IMG/VR virus record: IMGVR_UViG_3300039372_000053
Source of the DNA: a virus
Lineage: Duplodnaviria; Heunggongvirae; Uroviricota; Caudoviricetes
Length of the DNA: 5,483 bases
Reading direction: 5' to 3' (one strand)
Positions 1-5,483 of this stretch are shown piece by piece. Under the pieces are notes generated by a model. That model was not told the DNA's origin and did not search any database. It was given only the letters and a program-made list of their open reading frames with translations. Each line of letters starts with the position of its first letter. Positions within the stretch are counted from its first letter, which is position 1. The translations under genes were made by a program, and so were the position numbers.

Positions 1-436
1 TGAGAGTATTGTCACGATGTTTACGCCCCAGCCATGGAGAAAGTTTTTTCAGGCAGGGAACATCCCGAATCGTCGCCTCCACGTGAGACTTCATAAAATC
101 TTCAGCGGCAGAATCCGTGGGCTGAAAAAGCAGACTGTTTCGGGATTTATGCTCAATAAAATACCCGACCACCCCCAGCAACATCTTTGTATAGCCAACA
201 CGGGCAGATTTAATCAGATTAACAGTCCGGATCTGATCATTCCCCATGCTGTTCATGATGGCGATCTGGAACGGCAGCGTTTTCCATTCTCCCTCACCAT
301 ATGAAGATTCTTTAGGCAGATAATAATTTTGATCAGCCCATTCAACTGGCGTCACCGGCAATGCCCTTATCAGGGGCTGTAATGCTGTTGTGACAGCACT
401 CATCATATTATTCAGTTGTTGCTCTGATATATTCAT
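1..436 (-). CDS. Terminase large subunit (lambda gpA-like), N-terminal ~145 codons only; the gene continues past the window start
   Basis: Not in the ORF track because it has no stop in the window. Reverse-complement translation from ATG at 436..434 gives MNISEQQLNNMMSAVTTALQPLIRALPVTPVEWADQNYYLPKESSYGEGEWKTLPFQIAIMNSMGNDQIRTVNLIKSARVGYTKMLLGVVGYFIEHK..., which aligns closely with the recalled N-terminus of lambda gpA (…VEWADANYYLPKESSYQEGRWETLPFQRAIMNAMGSDYIREVNVVKSARVGYSKMLLGVYAYFIEHK…). It overlaps the 3' end of the small subunit gene by 26 nt, as Nu1/A do in lambda. Confidence 0.9.
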   Translation of the reverse strand, partial: MNISEQQLNNMMSAVTTALQPLIRALPVTPVEWADQNYYLPKESSYGEGEWKTLPFQIAIMNSMGNDQIRTVNLIKSARVGYTKMLLGVVGYFIEHKSRNSLLFQPTDSAAEDFMKSHVEATIRDVPCLKKLSPWLGRKHRDNTL

Positions 437-917
437 CGAGTAAATCCGGTAATTTATCCCCCGCCCGCGCACACTGATTTGCCCCCTTCGCAATAAGGGT
501 TTTCAGATGGTCAAGATGGCGCGGTGTTAAATCAGGAAACTGTCGCTGCATGGATAAAGGGATGGAATCAAGCGTACTGGATAACGCCATTGCCAGCTTG
601 CTGAGAGCAAAAATACAGAACCCGGTATCAATAAGTTTTCCTTTTGACACCTCATTTTTTAACTGCTGTGTAACAGCCTGTTCTGCTGTCAGTTCCCATC
701 TGGCAATAAGCAATTTCTCCTCATAGTCGTCTTCGCTATCGCCATCAGGCACATCGTTTTTACTTCTTCTCAGATACGATATGTAAAAATCGCGCCAGGC
801 ATCCAGATCCAGTTGCCCTCGCTTATTCGATATCGGGGCACCCGGCAATTTCTGCAATCTGCGAAGCTGGCGATCGGTCAGACTTAAATGCCTGGCAACT
901 TCAGTCTGCGTAGCCAC
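408..917 (-). CDS. Terminase small subunit (lambda Nu1-like), 169 aa, GTG start
   Basis: The C-terminal half (…DTGFCIFALSKLAMALSSTLDSIPLSMQRQFPDLTPRHLDHLK…LPDLLDEYIRATTE) aligns with recalled lambda Nu1 (…ETAFCTFVLSRIAGEIASILDGLPLSVQRRFPELENRHVDFLK…IPGLLSEYIEQSG). The N-terminal DNA-binding part is diverged. The first in-frame start after a TGA is GTG at 917..915, preceded by GAGGTGAGGA. The gene sits next to cos and upstream of the large subunit. Confidence 0.9.
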   Translation of the reverse strand: MATQTEVARHLSLTDRQLRRLQKLPGAPISNKRGQLDLDAWRDFYISYLRRSKNDVPDGDSEDDYEEKLLIARWELTAEQAVTQQLKNEVSKGKLIDTGFCIFALSKLAMALSSTLDSIPLSMQRQFPDLTPRHLDHLKTLIAKGANQCARAGDKLPDLLDEYIRATTE

Positions 918-1100
918 TCCTCACCTCGCAAAAACTCTCACTTCACAATCACAACAAAACCGGTCATGTCCGGCTTACATGTCTATTTTTTGTGCATGCC
1001 CGGTTCACAGAAGACCTCTTTTTTTATTTTTCATATAGTTAACTTGAAGAGAAACCGGACATGGTTCCCGGAAAATTTTCATAAATAGCGAAAACCCGCG
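918..1100. promoter_or_regulatory. cosB-like region: candidate terminase small-subunit binding elements and an AT-rich bend segment between cosN and the small-subunit gene
   Basis: Repeated 9-bp motif CCGGACATG in both orientations: 960..973 is the near-palindrome ccggtcatgtccgg, 995..1003 is catgcccgg, and 1055..1064 is ccggacatgg. An A/T-rich stretch lies at about 1017..1048. The position corresponds to lambda cosB (R3-I1-R2-R1), but the repeat sequence differs from the lambda R consensus. Confidence 0.5.
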
Positions 1101-1112
1101 AGGTCGCCGCCC
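1101..1112. other. cosN cohesive-end sequence (12-nt overhang segment, lambda-identical)
   Basis: The plus strand reads aggtcgccgccc, whose reverse complement is GGGCGGCGACCT, the lambda cohesive end. The reverse complement of 1068..1112 reproduces about the first 45 nt of the lambda left end as recalled (GGGCGGCGACCTCGCGGGTTTTCGCTATTTATGAAAATTTTCCGG). The plus strand from 1113 (cgtaacctgtcggatcgccggaaaggacc) matches the reverse complement of the lambda right end with one or two substitutions. Confidence 0.88.
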
Positions 1113-1148
1113 CGTAACCTGTCGGATCGCCGGAAAGGACCCGCAAAA

Positions 1149-1163
1149 TGATAATAATTATCA
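1149..1163. promoter_or_regulatory. 15-bp inverted repeat TGATAAT-a-ATTATCA (operator-like site) between cos and the YlcI-like gene
   Basis: Perfect 7-bp arms (tgataat / attatca) around a single central base. A near-identical element (TGATAATGATTATCA) is recalled at the equivalent position of the lambda right end. No binding factor can be assigned from sequence alone. Confidence 0.4.
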
Positions 1164-1311
1164 TCTATATGTCACAACGTGCATCTACGCCATCAAACCA
1201 CGTCAAATAATCAATTATGACGCAGGTATCGTATTAATTGATCTGCATCAACTTAACGTAAAAACAACTTCAGACAATACAAATCAGCGACACTGAATAC
1301 GGGGCAACCTC

Positions 1312-1545
1312 ATGTCAACGAAGAACAAAACCCGCAGAACAACAACCCGCAACATCCGCTTTCCTAACCAAATGATTGAACAAAGTAACATCGCTCTTGA
1401 TCAAAAAGGGTCCGGGAATTTCTCAGCCTGGGTCATTGAAGCCTGCCGCCGGAGACTGTGCTCAGAAAAAAGAGTTTCTCCTGAAGCAAACAAAGAAAAG
1501 AGTGACATTACTGAATTGCTCAGAAAACAGGTCAGACCAGATTGA
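1312..1545 (+). CDS. Small phage protein, DUF3950 / YlcI-like (77 aa)
   Basis: The N-terminus MSTKNKTRRTTTRNIRFPNQMIEQSNIALDQKGSGNFSAWVIEACRRRL matches my recollection of YlcI-type proteins from E. coli lambdoid prophages (DLP12) and of the unannotated ORF at the lambda right end. It is divergent from the terminase genes, as in DLP12. The Shine-Dalgarno is weak (acgggg). Confidence 0.7.
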   Translation: MSTKNKTRRTTTRNIRFPNQMIEQSNIALDQKGSGNFSAWVIEACRRRLCSEKRVSPEANKEKSDITELLRKQVRPD

Positions 1546-3183: not shown

Positions 3184-3651
3184 TCATCGAAGGCATTGCG
3201 TCCTAATGTATTCCTGAAGCGTTCTCAGTGCTGTTTGGTCGCGGATAATTCCGTCCCGGATATCGAGAACGTTTCGTCCAGCAACTGGAGAGAGTTCGAC
3301 GGTGGCATCATTGCCCATGCCGGAGGCGCTGGAGGTTTCGGCTGAGGATGGCACAGGGCATTTTCCTTTGACGAGCACCCTGCCACCATTATCAAGCTTC
3401 CGCAGAAGAGCATCATTTTCAGCTTTCGCATCAGCTAACTCCTTCGTGTATTTTGCATCGAGCGCAGCAACATCACGCTGACGCATCTGCATGTCAGTAA
3501 TTGCCGCGTTCGCCAGCTTCAGTTCTCTGACATTTTTGTCGCGCTGGGCTTTGTAGGTAATGGCGTTATCGCGGTAATGATTAACAGCCCATGACAGGCA
3601 GACGATGGTGCAGATAACCAGAGTATAAATAATCGCTGCGACTCTGCTCAC
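3184..3651 (-). CDS. Rz: Rz i-spanin (inner-membrane spanin subunit), start GTG at 3651..3649
   Basis: From the GTG the protein reads [40 protein letters not shown]…[30 protein letters not shown]…, near-identical in its N-terminal two thirds to recalled lambda Rz ([82 protein letters not shown]…). The track start (TTG at 3666) is 5 codons too long. GTG overlaps the endolysin TGA stop (GTGA), and GGGGGA lies 7 nt upstream. Confidence 0.9.
3225..3431 (-). CDS. Rz1: Rz1 o-spanin (outer-membrane lipoprotein), embedded in the +1 frame of Rz
   Basis: [21 protein letters not shown]… has a lipoprotein signal and lipobox (VAGC), followed by a proline-rich mature part ([11 protein letters not shown]). 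This matches recalled lambda Rz1 (MLKLKMMLCVMMLPLVVVGC…PPPPPAW). It is fully embedded in Rz, and GAAGGAG lies 7 nt upstream of the ATG. Confidence 0.85.
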
Positions 3652-4181
3652 TGATCTATCCCCCAACAGGCTAATGCGCTTTCCTGGTCACGACGAATAA
3701 CCTGTCCATAGCAGTTATTTGAACGTATGCGGCAATCGCGCCCACCATCTTTTATCCACCAGCGAATCGCCTCGCATGCGCCCTTACGATCACCGGCATT
3801 CAGCCGCTTATAAAACGTCGACGGGAAACACTTACCGGGGCCAATGTTATAGGGACAGAATGACGCTATACCCGCTTTCTGTGGTTCGGTCAGTGGTACT
3901 TTAATATTGCGCTCCACCCATGCCAGCGCCTTATCACGTTCAATAGCGTTAACCTGGTCGCATTTTTCCTTCGACAGCCTCATTCCCGGTATGACGGGCT
4001 TACCATCCACCATTGTGGCACCACGACAGATGGTCCATATACCGGAACCATCGCGGTATGCCGTTGTGTGGTTACCTTCTTTTTCATCCAGAAACTGGTC
4101 GAGAATATCAGGCGCAGGCGCACCGACGGCAATCAGTGCCAGAACGGCAGCCGACAGGCCGTATCTGATTTTTGCGTTCAT
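3648..4181 (-). CDS. SAR endolysin (T4-type lysozyme, glycoside hydrolase family 24) with N-terminal signal-anchor-release domain, 177 aa
   Basis: The N-terminus [27 protein letters not shown] is a Gly/Ala-rich weakly hydrophobic segment typical of SAR domains. It is followed by the lysozyme catalytic region [20 protein letters not shown]. The organisation resembles phage 21 R and E. coli prophage lysozymes (RrrD/RrrQ type). It lies between the holin and Rz. Confidence 0.9.
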
Positions 4182-4286
4182 GGATATTTATCAGGATTTA
4201 TCGGTTTCTGAACCCTGGATATGTTTATCTGTCCCGGCCTGTTGAATCAGGCAAGGAATAGTTAAATACAATAGAGAGGATTGTTT

Positions 4287-4559
4287 ATGGACAATAGCAC
4301 CATTTCTCTACAGGAGTTGCTCGACTGCATTTCCAAGCTTCGGGATGATGTAAATGCCCTTACTGTCGCATTTTCATATCTGGCATTCTCAATTCCCAAG
4401 GAACAAATGCAACCAACACTGGCATCGCTCCAGCTTGAATCACTCAACCCCAAATGGTCCCAGCAACAACAAAATTCTTTCAAGTGGCTGGCGGTATTAC
4501 TGGAAGAAAAATATGCTGGTGAAATTACCATTTCGGCGGAGTCTTCAGTGAACCAGTAA
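4287..4559 (+). CDS. Candidate small protein (90 aa) antisense to the late/lysis operon; function unknown
   Basis: ATG at 4287 is preceded by AGAGAGGA (4272..4279) with a 7-nt spacer. The track's TTG start at 4281 is less likely. The translation MDNSTISLQELLDCISKLRDDVNALTVAFSYLAFSIPKEQMQ…WLAVLLEEKYAGEITISAESSVNQ has ordinary helical-protein composition, whereas the competing minus-strand frame is Cys/Ser-rich with rare codons. A weak hairpin plus T4 follows at 4602..4628. Its 3' end overlaps the convergent ORF 4525..4869 by 35 nt. No homolog is recognised. Confidence 0.4.
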   Translation: MDNSTISLQELLDCISKLRDDVNALTVAFSYLAFSIPKEQMQPTLASLQLESLNPKWSQQQQNSFKWLAVLLEEKYAGEITISAESSVNQ

Positions 4560-4869
4560 TTCTTCCCGGCAGTTTTCCTTTGTAGGTTATCCACACACCC
4601 TGCGCCTCTAAAATTATGGGGCGCTTTTCCGGTGACTGCTCATCCCCTTCACATAACCCGGCAGCAACATCCAGGAAGACCTGTCTGATGCTCCTTCTGG
4701 CTGCTGCCTCATAAAACCCCAGCGCGGCACCTTCAACACGGTCCAGCGAGATGTCCAGGTCAAAAATTTCACCGTCAAAGCGTTTTTTGTCCCGTAACGC
4801 TAAAGTTACCGTAACTTTATTCTCAAAATTGCGGATCCCTTTCACAATCAGTTCATAGTTTTGAATCAT
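4525..4869 (-). CDS. Hypothetical protein (114 aa) translationally coupled to the holin; possibly DUF1327 / YdfR-like by size and position
   Basis: ATG at 4869 lies 4 nt after the holin TAA stop (4876..4874). GGGGAGAG lies 7 nt upstream, inside the holin 3' end. The protein is soluble-looking and acidic (MIQNYELIVKGIRNFENKVTVTLALRDKKRFDGEIFDLD…). From memory, the Qin prophage has a DUF1327 gene (ydfR) between its holin and lysozyme; sequence identity is not verified. Confidence 0.7.
   Translation of the reverse strand: MIQNYELIVKGIRNFENKVTVTLALRDKKRFDGEIFDLDISLDRVEGAALGFYEAAARRSIRQVFLDVAAGLCEGDEQSPEKRPIILEAQGVWITYKGKLPGRITGSLKTPPKW
4602..4628 (+). terminator. Weak candidate terminator downstream of the antisense ORF
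   Basis: 5-bp stem gcgcc (4602..4606) pairs with ggcgc (4620..4624) around a 13-nt loop, followed by tttt (4625..4628). The stem is short and the loop long, so this is marginal. Confidence 0.25.
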
Positions 4870-4873
4870 TGAA

Positions 4874-5089
4874 TTACTCTCCCCGCGCAGCCTTACGACG
4901 GTCCTCTCTGATTTTGAAATACAGGTTAGTCAGATATGTCAGGAAGCCCAGAACCAGACTCCCCAGTACACCAATCGCAGCCCACTGTGACGGACTGACC
5001 TGATCAAGCCACTGTAAAAACCAGTAGCCAGCACTGCCTGCGGAGGTGCCGTAGGCAATGCCCGTTGAAATTTTATCCATGGATTTCAT
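4874..5089 (-). CDS. Class II holin, phage 21 S21-type pinholin (71 aa) with dual-start motif
   Basis: [71 protein letters not shown] matches recalled S21 / EssD. It has two transmembrane segments, and Met1-Lys-Ser-Met4 gives the antiholin/holin dual start. GGAGGTGAGG lies immediately upstream. The track's extension to 5188 is an open-frame artefact. Confidence 0.9.
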
Positions 5090-5226
5090 AGCCTCACCTC
5101 CGCAGCGAACGGATGGCGTAGTTATAAGGGGAGCGAAAAAGAAAGAATGCGCGATTGCGCAATATGGTAACGTCAGGGTATTATCCACTGGCTGAATAGA
5201 TCACTTCACGTTTTTTGTTCCTTGCC

Positions 5227-5254: not shown

Positions 5255-5260
5255 GCATGT

Positions 5261-5290
5261 AAAAAGGCCCCAACACATGTGCGTGGGGCC
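5261..5290 (-). terminator. Rho-independent terminator (minus strand), candidate late-operon tR'-like terminator upstream of the holin
   Basis: GC-rich stem ggcccca (5266..5272) pairs with tggggcc (5284..5290) around an 11-nt loop. On the minus strand it is followed by TTTTT (5265..5261). It lies about 170 bp upstream of the holin start in the direction of late transcription. Confidence 0.55.
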
Positions 5291-5483
5291 TGAGAGTATA
5301 CATGGTTTCAGTCAACTGCATGGTGCCGGGTGCCTCCCGGTGAATTCAGTACCAGCACCTGAATCCGCGATTATCCCATATACCTACTCGCTGATTGCCC
5401 CTCCGCACAGGGGGATTCACCATGCCAGTTTCTTTTAACAAACTCCCCGCAAACCAGACAACAGTCAACCGCCTGAATTGTGA

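Follow-up and report, generated by a model that had tools for sequence, protein, structure and literature searches.

The 5483-bp stretch of tailed-virus DNA analysed here in full (IMG/VR record IMGVR_UViG_3300039372_000053; "the window") carries at 918..1145 what is, by sequence match, the cos site of a lambda-like prophage, namely prophage 2 of Escherichia coli CFT073 or its counterpart in a near-identical strain. This cos likely works as that of lambda does (with a probability of roughly 0.8), its cosB and the DNA-binding domain of its small terminase subunit (TerS) together constituting one exchangeable specificity cassette that is joined at bp 45/46 to a cosQ-cosN segment of the lambda/Qin type and that represents a class distinct from those of lambda, phage 21, and N15. 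What is known of packaging specificity in lambda-like phages comes from very few classes, those of lambda, phage 21, and N15. The arrangement itself is of a known kind, in which a complex cos like that of lambda contains an exchangeable cassette of cosB and TerS domain. However, no description of the specificity class found in the window, referred to below as MATQ-type, was found in the literature searched, and the class appears to be uncharacterised. What the window adds beyond a further class is a co-variation between one TerS residue and one cosB base, and a match to the second cos site of a satellite island.

Anatomy of the cos site

The phage reads on the minus strand of the window, and phage bp are given as 1113 minus the window position. 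Direct sequence reading places the GGGTCCT core of cosQ, the packaging-termination signal, at 1136..1142 (minus strand; 1142..1136 in phage direction), at the distance of about 20-30 bp upstream of cosN expected for a lambda-like complex cos. The core is conserved in all relatives, with CGGGTCCTTTCC kept at cosQ in all family loci and in lambda, Qin, and phage 21; cosQ is printed as TTTACGGGTCCTTCC in Fig. S5 of PMC6092414. cosN follows at 1101..1112 (minus strand), where the plus strand reads AGGTCGCCGCCC, the reverse complement of the 12-nt lambda cohesive end GGGCGGCGACCT; both this lambda-identical end and its flanking CG are as in a lambda-like complex cos. The cosN-cosB spacer (phage bp 13-45; 1068..1100, minus strand) is likewise identical to lambda and includes TATTTATGAAAATTTT, which is kept across the family, lambda, and phage 21. 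Elsewhere in the family the cohesive-end sequence varies (loci L014, L016, L018, L020, L022, and L024), mainly in its right half, with cosQ and bp 25-42 conserved. This variation agrees with a functional asymmetry of cosN reportedly described by Feiss.

The initial annotation had proposed that cosN and about 45 bp match lambda, and the identity is indeed exact over phage bp 1-45 (window 1112..1068, the 12-nt end and 33 bp more) and breaks off at bp 46. Identity to lambda in the cosQ-side segment 1113..1320 amounts to 96%, and several lambda-like phages reach 99.6% there; megablast matches to lambda-like phages all end at window 1068. Prophage Qin of E. coli K-12 is 96% identical to the window through ynfO-ydfO-cosQ-cosN as far as bp 45, beyond which it has a lambda cosB and the lambda-type NohA. 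Comparison with Qin and lambda thus places a mosaic junction exactly between the cosN spacer and cosB (window 1068/1067, bp 45/46).

Beyond the junction lie three repeats that are not those of lambda. All three motifs named in the initial annotation are present, CCGGTCATGTCCGG at 960..973, CATGCCCGG at 995..1003, and CCGGACATGG at 1055..1064, although the real units at R3 (1064..1053) and R2 (994..1005) are 12-mers and R1 spans 975..958. R3, the predicted main TerS binding site, reads CCATGTCCGGTT at 1053..1064 (minus strand); at phage bp 49-60 it falls where R3 is expected (about bp 48-65 from the cohesive end), and its position is almost fixed in relatives. I1, a site resembling those of integration host factor (IHF), reads TAACTATATGAAA at 1029..1041 (minus strand, phage bp 72-84) and has two mismatches to the IHF consensus YAANNNNTTGATW, as many as lambda I1; phage 21 I1 has one. 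R2, GCATGCCCGGTT at 994..1005 (plus strand, phage bp 108-119), is an inverted copy of R3, as a lambda-like complex cos requires. R1, a third copy and a near-palindrome (AACCGGTCATGTCCGGCT at 958..975, plus strand, phage bp 138-155), is read perfectly in the orientation of R2, whereas a reading in the orientation of R3 needs one mismatch. Allowing at most one mismatch, the core CATGTCCGG occurs four times in the whole window, all within 960..1063, with about 1.03 occurrences expected window-wide. A promoter scan of the cos gave nothing above background.

The terminase subunits

TerS (169 aa, GTG start; 408..917, minus strand) divides into a predicted winged helix-turn-helix DNA-binding domain at residues 1-56 (750..917) and, from about residue 62 to 169, a Nu1-like part for oligomerisation and TerL binding, TerL being the large terminase subunit. 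As the initial annotation had maintained, the N-terminus differs from that of lambda Nu1 and the C-terminal part is conserved. Pfam Phage_Nu1 (PF07471) covers residues 49-150 only (E = 1e-18), leaving the N-terminal domain unmatched, and BLASTP aligns only residues 73-164 with lambda Nu1 (46% identity) and only residues 64-166 with phage 21 gp1 (40%). A comparison of TerS with Nu1 by hhalign reaches a probability of 100%, the central and C-terminal region of the Nu1 family being present, and N15 TerS aligns with residues 59-164 alone. For TerL, of which the N-terminal 145 residues are encoded at 1..436 (minus strand; Pfam GpA_ATPase) in a gene that continues past the window edge, the annotation's description as lambda-like stands in that residues 1-145 are 66% identical to lambda gpA; the resemblance is only a loose one, as identity to phage 21 gp2 is 78% over residues 17-145, and overall this TerL is therefore nearer phage 21 than lambda. 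Database names of the kind "prophage Qin ... NU1-like" suggested that the window TerS might be K-12 Qin NohA. That identification was rejected, NohA being a lambda-type Nu1 that accompanies a lambda cosB.

The C-terminal module of the window TerS occurs with at least three unrelated N-terminal domains, the window's own MATQ type included. One of the alternatives is a lambda/21-like domain (MKVNKK..., in protein P0063) and another is of a type beginning MAFLLNKSDM... (P0056, P0060, P0069, and others), while the MATQ domain is itself also found on an unrelated C-terminus, in a 192-aa protein (P0101). Proteins P0073 and P0087 were likewise among those examined. These alternative pairings indicate that TerS domain shuffling is widespread.

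The AlphaFold model of TerS residues 1-56 (predicted local distance difference test score, 86) is a three-helix winged domain with helices at 4-10, 15-22, and 38-55. Foldseek searches with the full-length model were too weak and were rerun on the DNA-binding domain alone, for which the leading PDB matches are nearly all winged helices of the MerR or excisionase type, all with E-values above 0.1. TM-scores of the domain model are 0.76 to RppC, 0.71 to lambda TerS 1-98, 0.67 to gpNu1 (1J9I), and 0.62-0.65 to other phage TerS domains, a span of 0.67-0.76 for 1J9I, 6HN7_B, and 6HLK. These matches are consistent with a winged-helix fold of the N-terminal domain but are not decisive.

Put together, these elements suggest how the site may operate. 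A dimer of the N-terminal winged-helix domain of TerS would bind the inverted pair of R3 (bp 49-60) and R2 (bp 108-119), which an IHF-induced bend at I1 (bp 72-84) would set face to face, with R1 as an accessory site. The Nu1-like C-terminal part of TerS would hold TerL over the lambda-identical cosN, where TerL would make the staggered nicks, and cosQ would serve termination. TerS binding, IHF bending, and packaging specificity are predictions of this scheme from the anatomy of the site, its conservation, its co-variation with TerS, and the predicted fold.

Conservation in the MATQ-type family

Homologues that share the N-terminus of the window TerS (MATQxEVAxHLxLTxRQLRxLQKxPGAP...) at 45-95% identity occur in E. 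coli, E. albertii, Klebsiella, Salmonella, Citrobacter, and Enterobacter as well as on metagenomic contigs. Upstream DNA was taken from 13 diverged members and 80 close viral contigs. The latter came from a scan of viral contigs with the TerS alignment in which 99% TerS identity was common to the best 80 loci, and they are informative on within-type variation only; a profile scan of genome contigs with the same alignment gave only seven loci, mostly C-terminal matches. Every MATQ-type locus with upstream sequence carries the R3 motif; the 33 distinct cos/TerS combinations that were tabulated all have it at bp 49-60, or at 50-61 in Klebsiella. The whole comparison extends to about 35 such combinations from six enterobacterial genera. 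I1 has zero to two mismatches to the consensus and lies at bp 72-84 or 73-85 in all of these combinations except L020 (bp 83), and R2 is found inverted at bp 108-119, up to 2 bp further in Klebsiella. The expectation raised by the initial annotation, that the motifs should be conserved wherever the TerS N-terminus is of the same type, is thus borne out for R3 in every locus, and for R2 and the IHF-like site in all MATQ-type loci except L109, which has R3 only. R1 is more variable: it lies at bp 137-138 in E. coli and E. kobei and at bp 151-152 in Klebsiella and is otherwise absent, and where present it has the orientation of R2. In L102, R2 and R1 are fused through a 30-bp deletion, as direct repeats would allow. 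The spacers between the cosB elements diverge freely among relatives while R3, I1, and R2 stay in place. L109 (about 300-380) is a distant member in its own right, with a TerS 46% identical to that of the window, Thr20, and a single R3-like site, GCGCTTCCGGTTCCGGTT, immediately followed by the TerS start, which amounts to a simple cosB, like that of N15, within the MATQ family.

The repeats might in principle owe nothing to protein recognition and be chance CCGG palindromes, or weak terminator hairpins upstream of the terminase genes. A consensus scan does return three terminator-like hairpins in 850..1350, where 0.8 were expected, among them one at R1 (976..957) and one at R3 (1071..1055) that, on the phage strand, run into T-rich sequence. 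What relatives conserve, however, is not a local hairpin but two 12-mers in inverted orientation, spaced 59 bp from each other and at a constant distance from cosN. Many relatives are without R1 and its hairpin, and those with CAGAGATC or CTGAAACT upstream have lost the local CCGG...CCGG stem of R3. Further, R3 and R2 vary jointly with each other and with a TerS residue, and the clustering of CATGTCCGG in the window is far above chance. The palindrome explanation is scarcely credible in this light; the hairpins at R1 and R3 are probably by-products of CCGG palindromes, given that they are not conserved in relatives.

The family is common in genomes. cosB and TerS (window 408..1067) are covered to at least 80% in 1149 of 5426 complete E. 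coli genomes (21%), and several other enterobacterial genera have the class, but phage collections contain almost none of it: the same TerS is found in only five of 50,697 phage records (PhiR12_1, PhiR12_2, PhiR12_2_star, PhiR12_4, and PhiR12_5), and no phage record other than these reaches 60% identity to the window TerS. The PhiR12 phages are deposited as complete genomes with K-12 or E. coli C as listed hosts, and their TerS is 99.4% and their cos region 90.5% identical to the window. A literature search on the PhiR12 phages, and on nohA and the Qin cos, yielded nothing relevant.

Concerted change of cosB and TerS

Within the family R3 and R2 change together, the pairs being ATGTCCGG/CCGGACAT, ATTTCCGG/CCGGAAAT, or ACTTCCGG/CCGGAAGT; L110 alone mixes two R forms, both of its copies being T-type. 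The base at bp 53 goes with the identity of TerS residue 20 without exception in the 14 TerS loci compared, which contain 12 distinct recognition-helix sequences: Arg20 pairs with G, and Asn, Asp, or Thr at this residue pairs with T. In L133 the helix LTDRQLRN, one residue off the Arg type, is accompanied by ATTTCCGG, and the domain is nearer the Arg-type domains than the main Asn/Asp group. Pattern scans of viral and metagenome contigs for subtypes other than G gave mostly chance matches; five viral contigs had genuine phage cos sites, none of them a counter-example, and of two genuine metagenome matches one, the island contig L211, led to the second cos site discussed below.

Residue 20 lies within helix 15-22 of the AlphaFold model and is aligned by hhalign opposite N21 of lambda and R21 of phage 21. 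The R-site base homologous to bp 53 is bp 56 of those phages, T in lambda and G in phage 21, and the pairing of Arg with G as against Asn with T within the MATQ class is therefore the same pairing as that of phage 21 versus lambda. Feiss and colleagues name bp 56 as a lambda/21 specificity determinant and assign the contact to residue 24 (PMC4669245). The equivalent of residue 24 in the window TerS is Lys23, which is nearly invariant in the family, and for this reason the reading of bp 53 by residue 20, although probable, is deduced from the sequence comparison only. The natural subtypes, in which R3, R2, and one helix residue vary jointly, constitute a natural experiment on cosB recognition by the winged helix of a TerS, and the co-variation predicts a specificity switch of one residue and one base.

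A matching cosB in the island EcCICFT073

The contig L211 carries a cos of the ACTTCCGG type that is not followed by TerS; the adjoining 146-aa protein matches RppC (E = 1e-32). A site of this sort exists in CFT073 itself. The island EcCICFT073 extends from int at 1,377,930 to rpp at 1,387,659-1,388,093 and begins about 5 kb past the end of the window's prophage. Its cos1 (L215 33559-33660; CFT073 1,387,558) lies upstream of rpp, which starts at about bp 102, and has GGTGACACCACCACC in the R3 position within an unrelated short cosB. Its cos2 (L215 34309-34150, minus strand; CFT073 1,388,309) lies downstream of rpp and convergent with it, has no TerS gene after it, and is 39 kb from the window's cos in the same genome. 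With R3 as CCATGTCCGGTT, I1 as TAACCATATGAAA, R2 as AACCGGACATGC, and R1 as AACCGGACATCG, the cosB of cos2 is of the window's class, and its bp 46-160 are 92% identical to the PhiR12_1 cosB and 79% to that of the window. The EcCICFT073-type cos2 context is present in 41 of the 5426 complete E. coli genomes.

The two island sites were printed as "CFT073 cos.1" and "cos.2" in Fig. S5 of Fillol-Salom et al. 2018 (PMC6092414), where the island cosB was called "completely divergent", the cos functional, and no cognate phage was assigned. Transfer of the island required the helper phage 4 (PMC6092414), which by its sequence here is phage 21-type: this icd-inserted prophage (L216 21600-22481; CFT073 1,424,600-1,425,480) has a TerS that reads as phage 21 gp1, and over bp 1-191, between the cohesive end and the start codon of TerS, its cos reads like that of phage 21 throughout. 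The possibility that the window's prophage is this helper was considered and discarded, the window belonging to prophage 2 and phage 4 being the phage 21-like prophage at icd. A 2019 paper reported that Rpp-TerS acts on cos1 and asked why some islands have two cos sites (PMC6739421); there RppA stimulated cos1 strongly, and for cos2 only a difference at p = 0.04 was obtained.

Because EcCICFT073 has this cosB beside rpp and has no MATQ-type TerS gene, the repeats might be read by a protein other than the prophage TerS, such as the island's Rpp-TerS heterodimer or a host factor. A comparison of islands argues otherwise. At the cos2 position, L214 and L219 (about 470-690) have the window's class and L211 (about 5110-4900, minus strand) has the ACTTCCGG subtype, whereas L217 and L218 (about 480-700) and L220 (about 740-960) have a cosB of the N15/Monarch type, in which GAGGTTGTTGTT occupies precisely bp 48-59 (R3-N15 sequence from PMC4669245). 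Over the 70 N-terminal residues examined, Rpp is nevertheless identical in L214, L217, and L218, and in general islands with an identical or near-identical Rpp N-terminus share the cos1 core motif and differ at cos2. Rpp thus tracks cos1 and not cos2; it was cos1 that RppA stimulated strongly, and in phages the motif co-varies with a TerS helix. Reading of the repeats by another protein is therefore highly improbable.

The constancy or near-constancy of cos1 and the Rpp N-terminus beside a varying cos2 suggests instead that Rpp reads cos1 and that cos2 may be a copy of a phage cos meant for the TerS of that phage. The cos2 position would accordingly be exchangeable in the islands examined, accepting the Arg/G subtype, the ACTTCCGG subtype, or the N15/Monarch type, each with the right cosN spacing. 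More tentatively, and at slightly less than even odds, cos2 of Rpp islands is a copied phage cos cassette that allows direct, Rpp-free packaging by phages of the matching TerS class, which for EcCICFT073 is the class of the window (CFT073 prophage 2 and PhiR12-type phages), with cos1 serving the Rpp-dependent hijack of helpers of the lambda, phi80, and phage 21 types. The match at cos2 points to a candidate cognate phage terminase for this site, and it is relevant to the question of which prophages are able to mobilise islands with virulence genes in uropathogenic E. coli.

State of the prophage and counter-evidence

Whether the window's copy is still functional deserves consideration, as it could be a dead relic within a defective prophage. 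Deletion of prophage 2 had no effect on island transfer, for which prophage 4 was the only helper (PMC6092414); R2 of the window contains a mismatch; and the tail-fibre assembly genes at the end of CFT073 prophage 2 are annotated as partial. Against this, the CFT073 prophage has a full set of head and tail genes, its TerS, TerL, portal, protease, decoration, capsid, and tail genes being annotated as intact, and cos, TerS, and the ynfO side are 99.8-100% conserved across many lineages. A near-identical TerS and cosB are, moreover, found in the deposited complete phage genomes noted above. A relic is accordingly unlikely.

Several observations weigh against the interpretation of this cos as a working site with its own specificity cassette. 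The association of residue 20 with bp 53 may reflect only one to three independent evolutionary events. Homology of the TerS N-terminal domain to that of Nu1 relies on the fold and on low-confidence hhalign columns, there being no sequence match: Pfam leaves the domain unmatched, the Foldseek E-values exceed 0.1, and a search of PDB sequences with a profile hidden Markov model of the TerS family found no TerS or Rpp. The R2 of the window (CATGcCCGG) differs from the family consensus at one base and is a minority form. R1 is oriented unlike that of lambda and phage 21, in both of which it shares the orientation of R3 (PMC9026076), and it is missing from many relatives. Relative to phage 21, the R site is displaced by 3 bp towards cosN; as lambda tolerates only a 1-2 bp change in cosN-R3 spacing (PMC4669245), the geometry of the complex must differ somewhat. 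Finally, the prophage 2 deletion left island transfer unaffected, and no report of prophage 2 being inducible was found in the literature.

Other features of the window

The window matches E. coli CFT073 (NC_004431) at about 1,344,160-1,349,640 and represents the reverse-oriented right-end/left-end junction of a lambdoid prophage. It differs from CFT073 by single-nucleotide polymorphisms at 1385 and 2284 and by a run of 10 N at 2832-2841 that replaces 9 nt. The missing CFT073 nucleotides (ATGAATAAT, phage strand) comprise the first three codons, start codon included, of a Rha-family gene. The N run implies that the window comes from a masked or gapped assembly and not from the CFT073 record itself.

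The lysis cassette (3184-5092) is phage 21-type and comprises an S21-family holin identified by Pfam (5092..4874, minus strand), a lysozyme with a hydrophobic N-terminus (4181..3648, minus strand), and Rz (3666..3184, minus strand). Between holin and lysozyme lie a DUF1327 (YdfR) gene (4525-4869, minus strand) and, on the opposite strand, an open reading frame of 92 aa (4281-4559) with no Pfam match. In phage order the Rha-family gene stands between Rz and ydfO/ynfO, and ydfO and ynfO stand between it and cos, on the strand opposite to the other phage genes listed. Upstream of the holin, in the late region, an Rfam match to the small RNA STnc100 spans 5255-5454 (minus strand; 139 bits against a gathering score of 47).

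Comparison with known systems

The window resembles lambda in its cosQ core, cosN, and bp 13-45, in the order and positions of R3, I1, R2, R1, and the TerS start, in the C-terminal part of TerS and in TerL at the identities given above, and in the winged helix-turn-helix predicted for its TerS domain. R3 of lambda is at bp 50-65 (PMC9026076), I1 at bp 74-86 in lambda and phage 21 alike, and TerS starts at bp 196 in the window, 191 in lambda, and 189 in phage 21. The features on which the packaging specificity of lambda depends are nevertheless lacking, namely R elements with a CGTTTCC core and the Nu1 recognition helix. The lambda core and CATGTCCGG are unrelated in detail, the N-terminal 60 or so residues of TerS cannot be aligned by BLAST or Pfam, and the window TerS has a shorter wing (169 aa against 181 for the protein). 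R1 of the window has the orientation of R2, and R3 starts 1 bp nearer cosN.

The likeness to phage 21 goes further in some respects. In both, a lambda-type cosN is combined with a non-lambda cosB. The annotated sites of phage 21 (OL657228) are R3 at 50-65 (AATCGTGTCGGTACTT), I1 at 74-86, R2 inverted at 107-122, and R1 at 150-166, so that both site order and R3/R2 orientation agree with the window; CATGTCCGG is CATGTCGG with one inserted base; G at the base homologous to bp 56 goes with Arg at the corresponding residue of the helix; TerL shows 78% identity; and the lysis cassette has an S21-type holin. A phage 21-type cos, with diverged phage 21 R repeats and the packaging specificity of phage 21, could be supposed on these grounds. 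Such a relation is nonetheless very unlikely. The extra base of the site and its location 3 bp nearer cosN depart from phage 21, whose own CATGTCGG sites at phage 21 positions are missing from the window, and cosB bp 46-160 are about 51% identical to phage 21, which is no better than to lambda and is background level. The window TerS aligns with gp1 from residue 64 on, and the gp1-type recognition helix is absent: the DNA-binding domain of gp1 is lambda-like (MKVNKKRLAEIF...), whereas that of the window begins MATQTEVARHL.... Among phage records only the PhiR12 phages have a TerS at 60% identity or above, and a genuine phage 21-type TerS and cosB sit in another CFT073 prophage, at icd. The specificity swap put forward in the initial annotation, on the pattern of lambda versus phage 21, is supported by the motif conservation, the Qin junction, and the modularity of TerS; it is followed in pattern, the specificity being that of a further class and not that of phage 21 itself.

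The cosB of N15 and Monarch (PMC4669245) offers a parallel of another kind, as a further natural specificity class of the lambda-like group that has simple (R3 only) as well as complex forms, just as the MATQ family has a simple member in L109. It differs in its R sequence, GAGGTTGTTGTT, and in a TerS that is alignable with the window's over residues 59-164 only. RppC (PDB 6HLK), one of the Rpp proteins of Gram-negative PICIs, which gave the best TM-score to the predicted TerS domain, is comparable as a winged helix with a role in cosB recognition, although Rpp has no sequence similarity to this domain, is without the TerL-binding C-terminus, and acts as a heterodimer with helper TerS on cos1. 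The cos2 of EcCICFT073 belongs to the same cosB class as the window's cos but resides in a satellite island.

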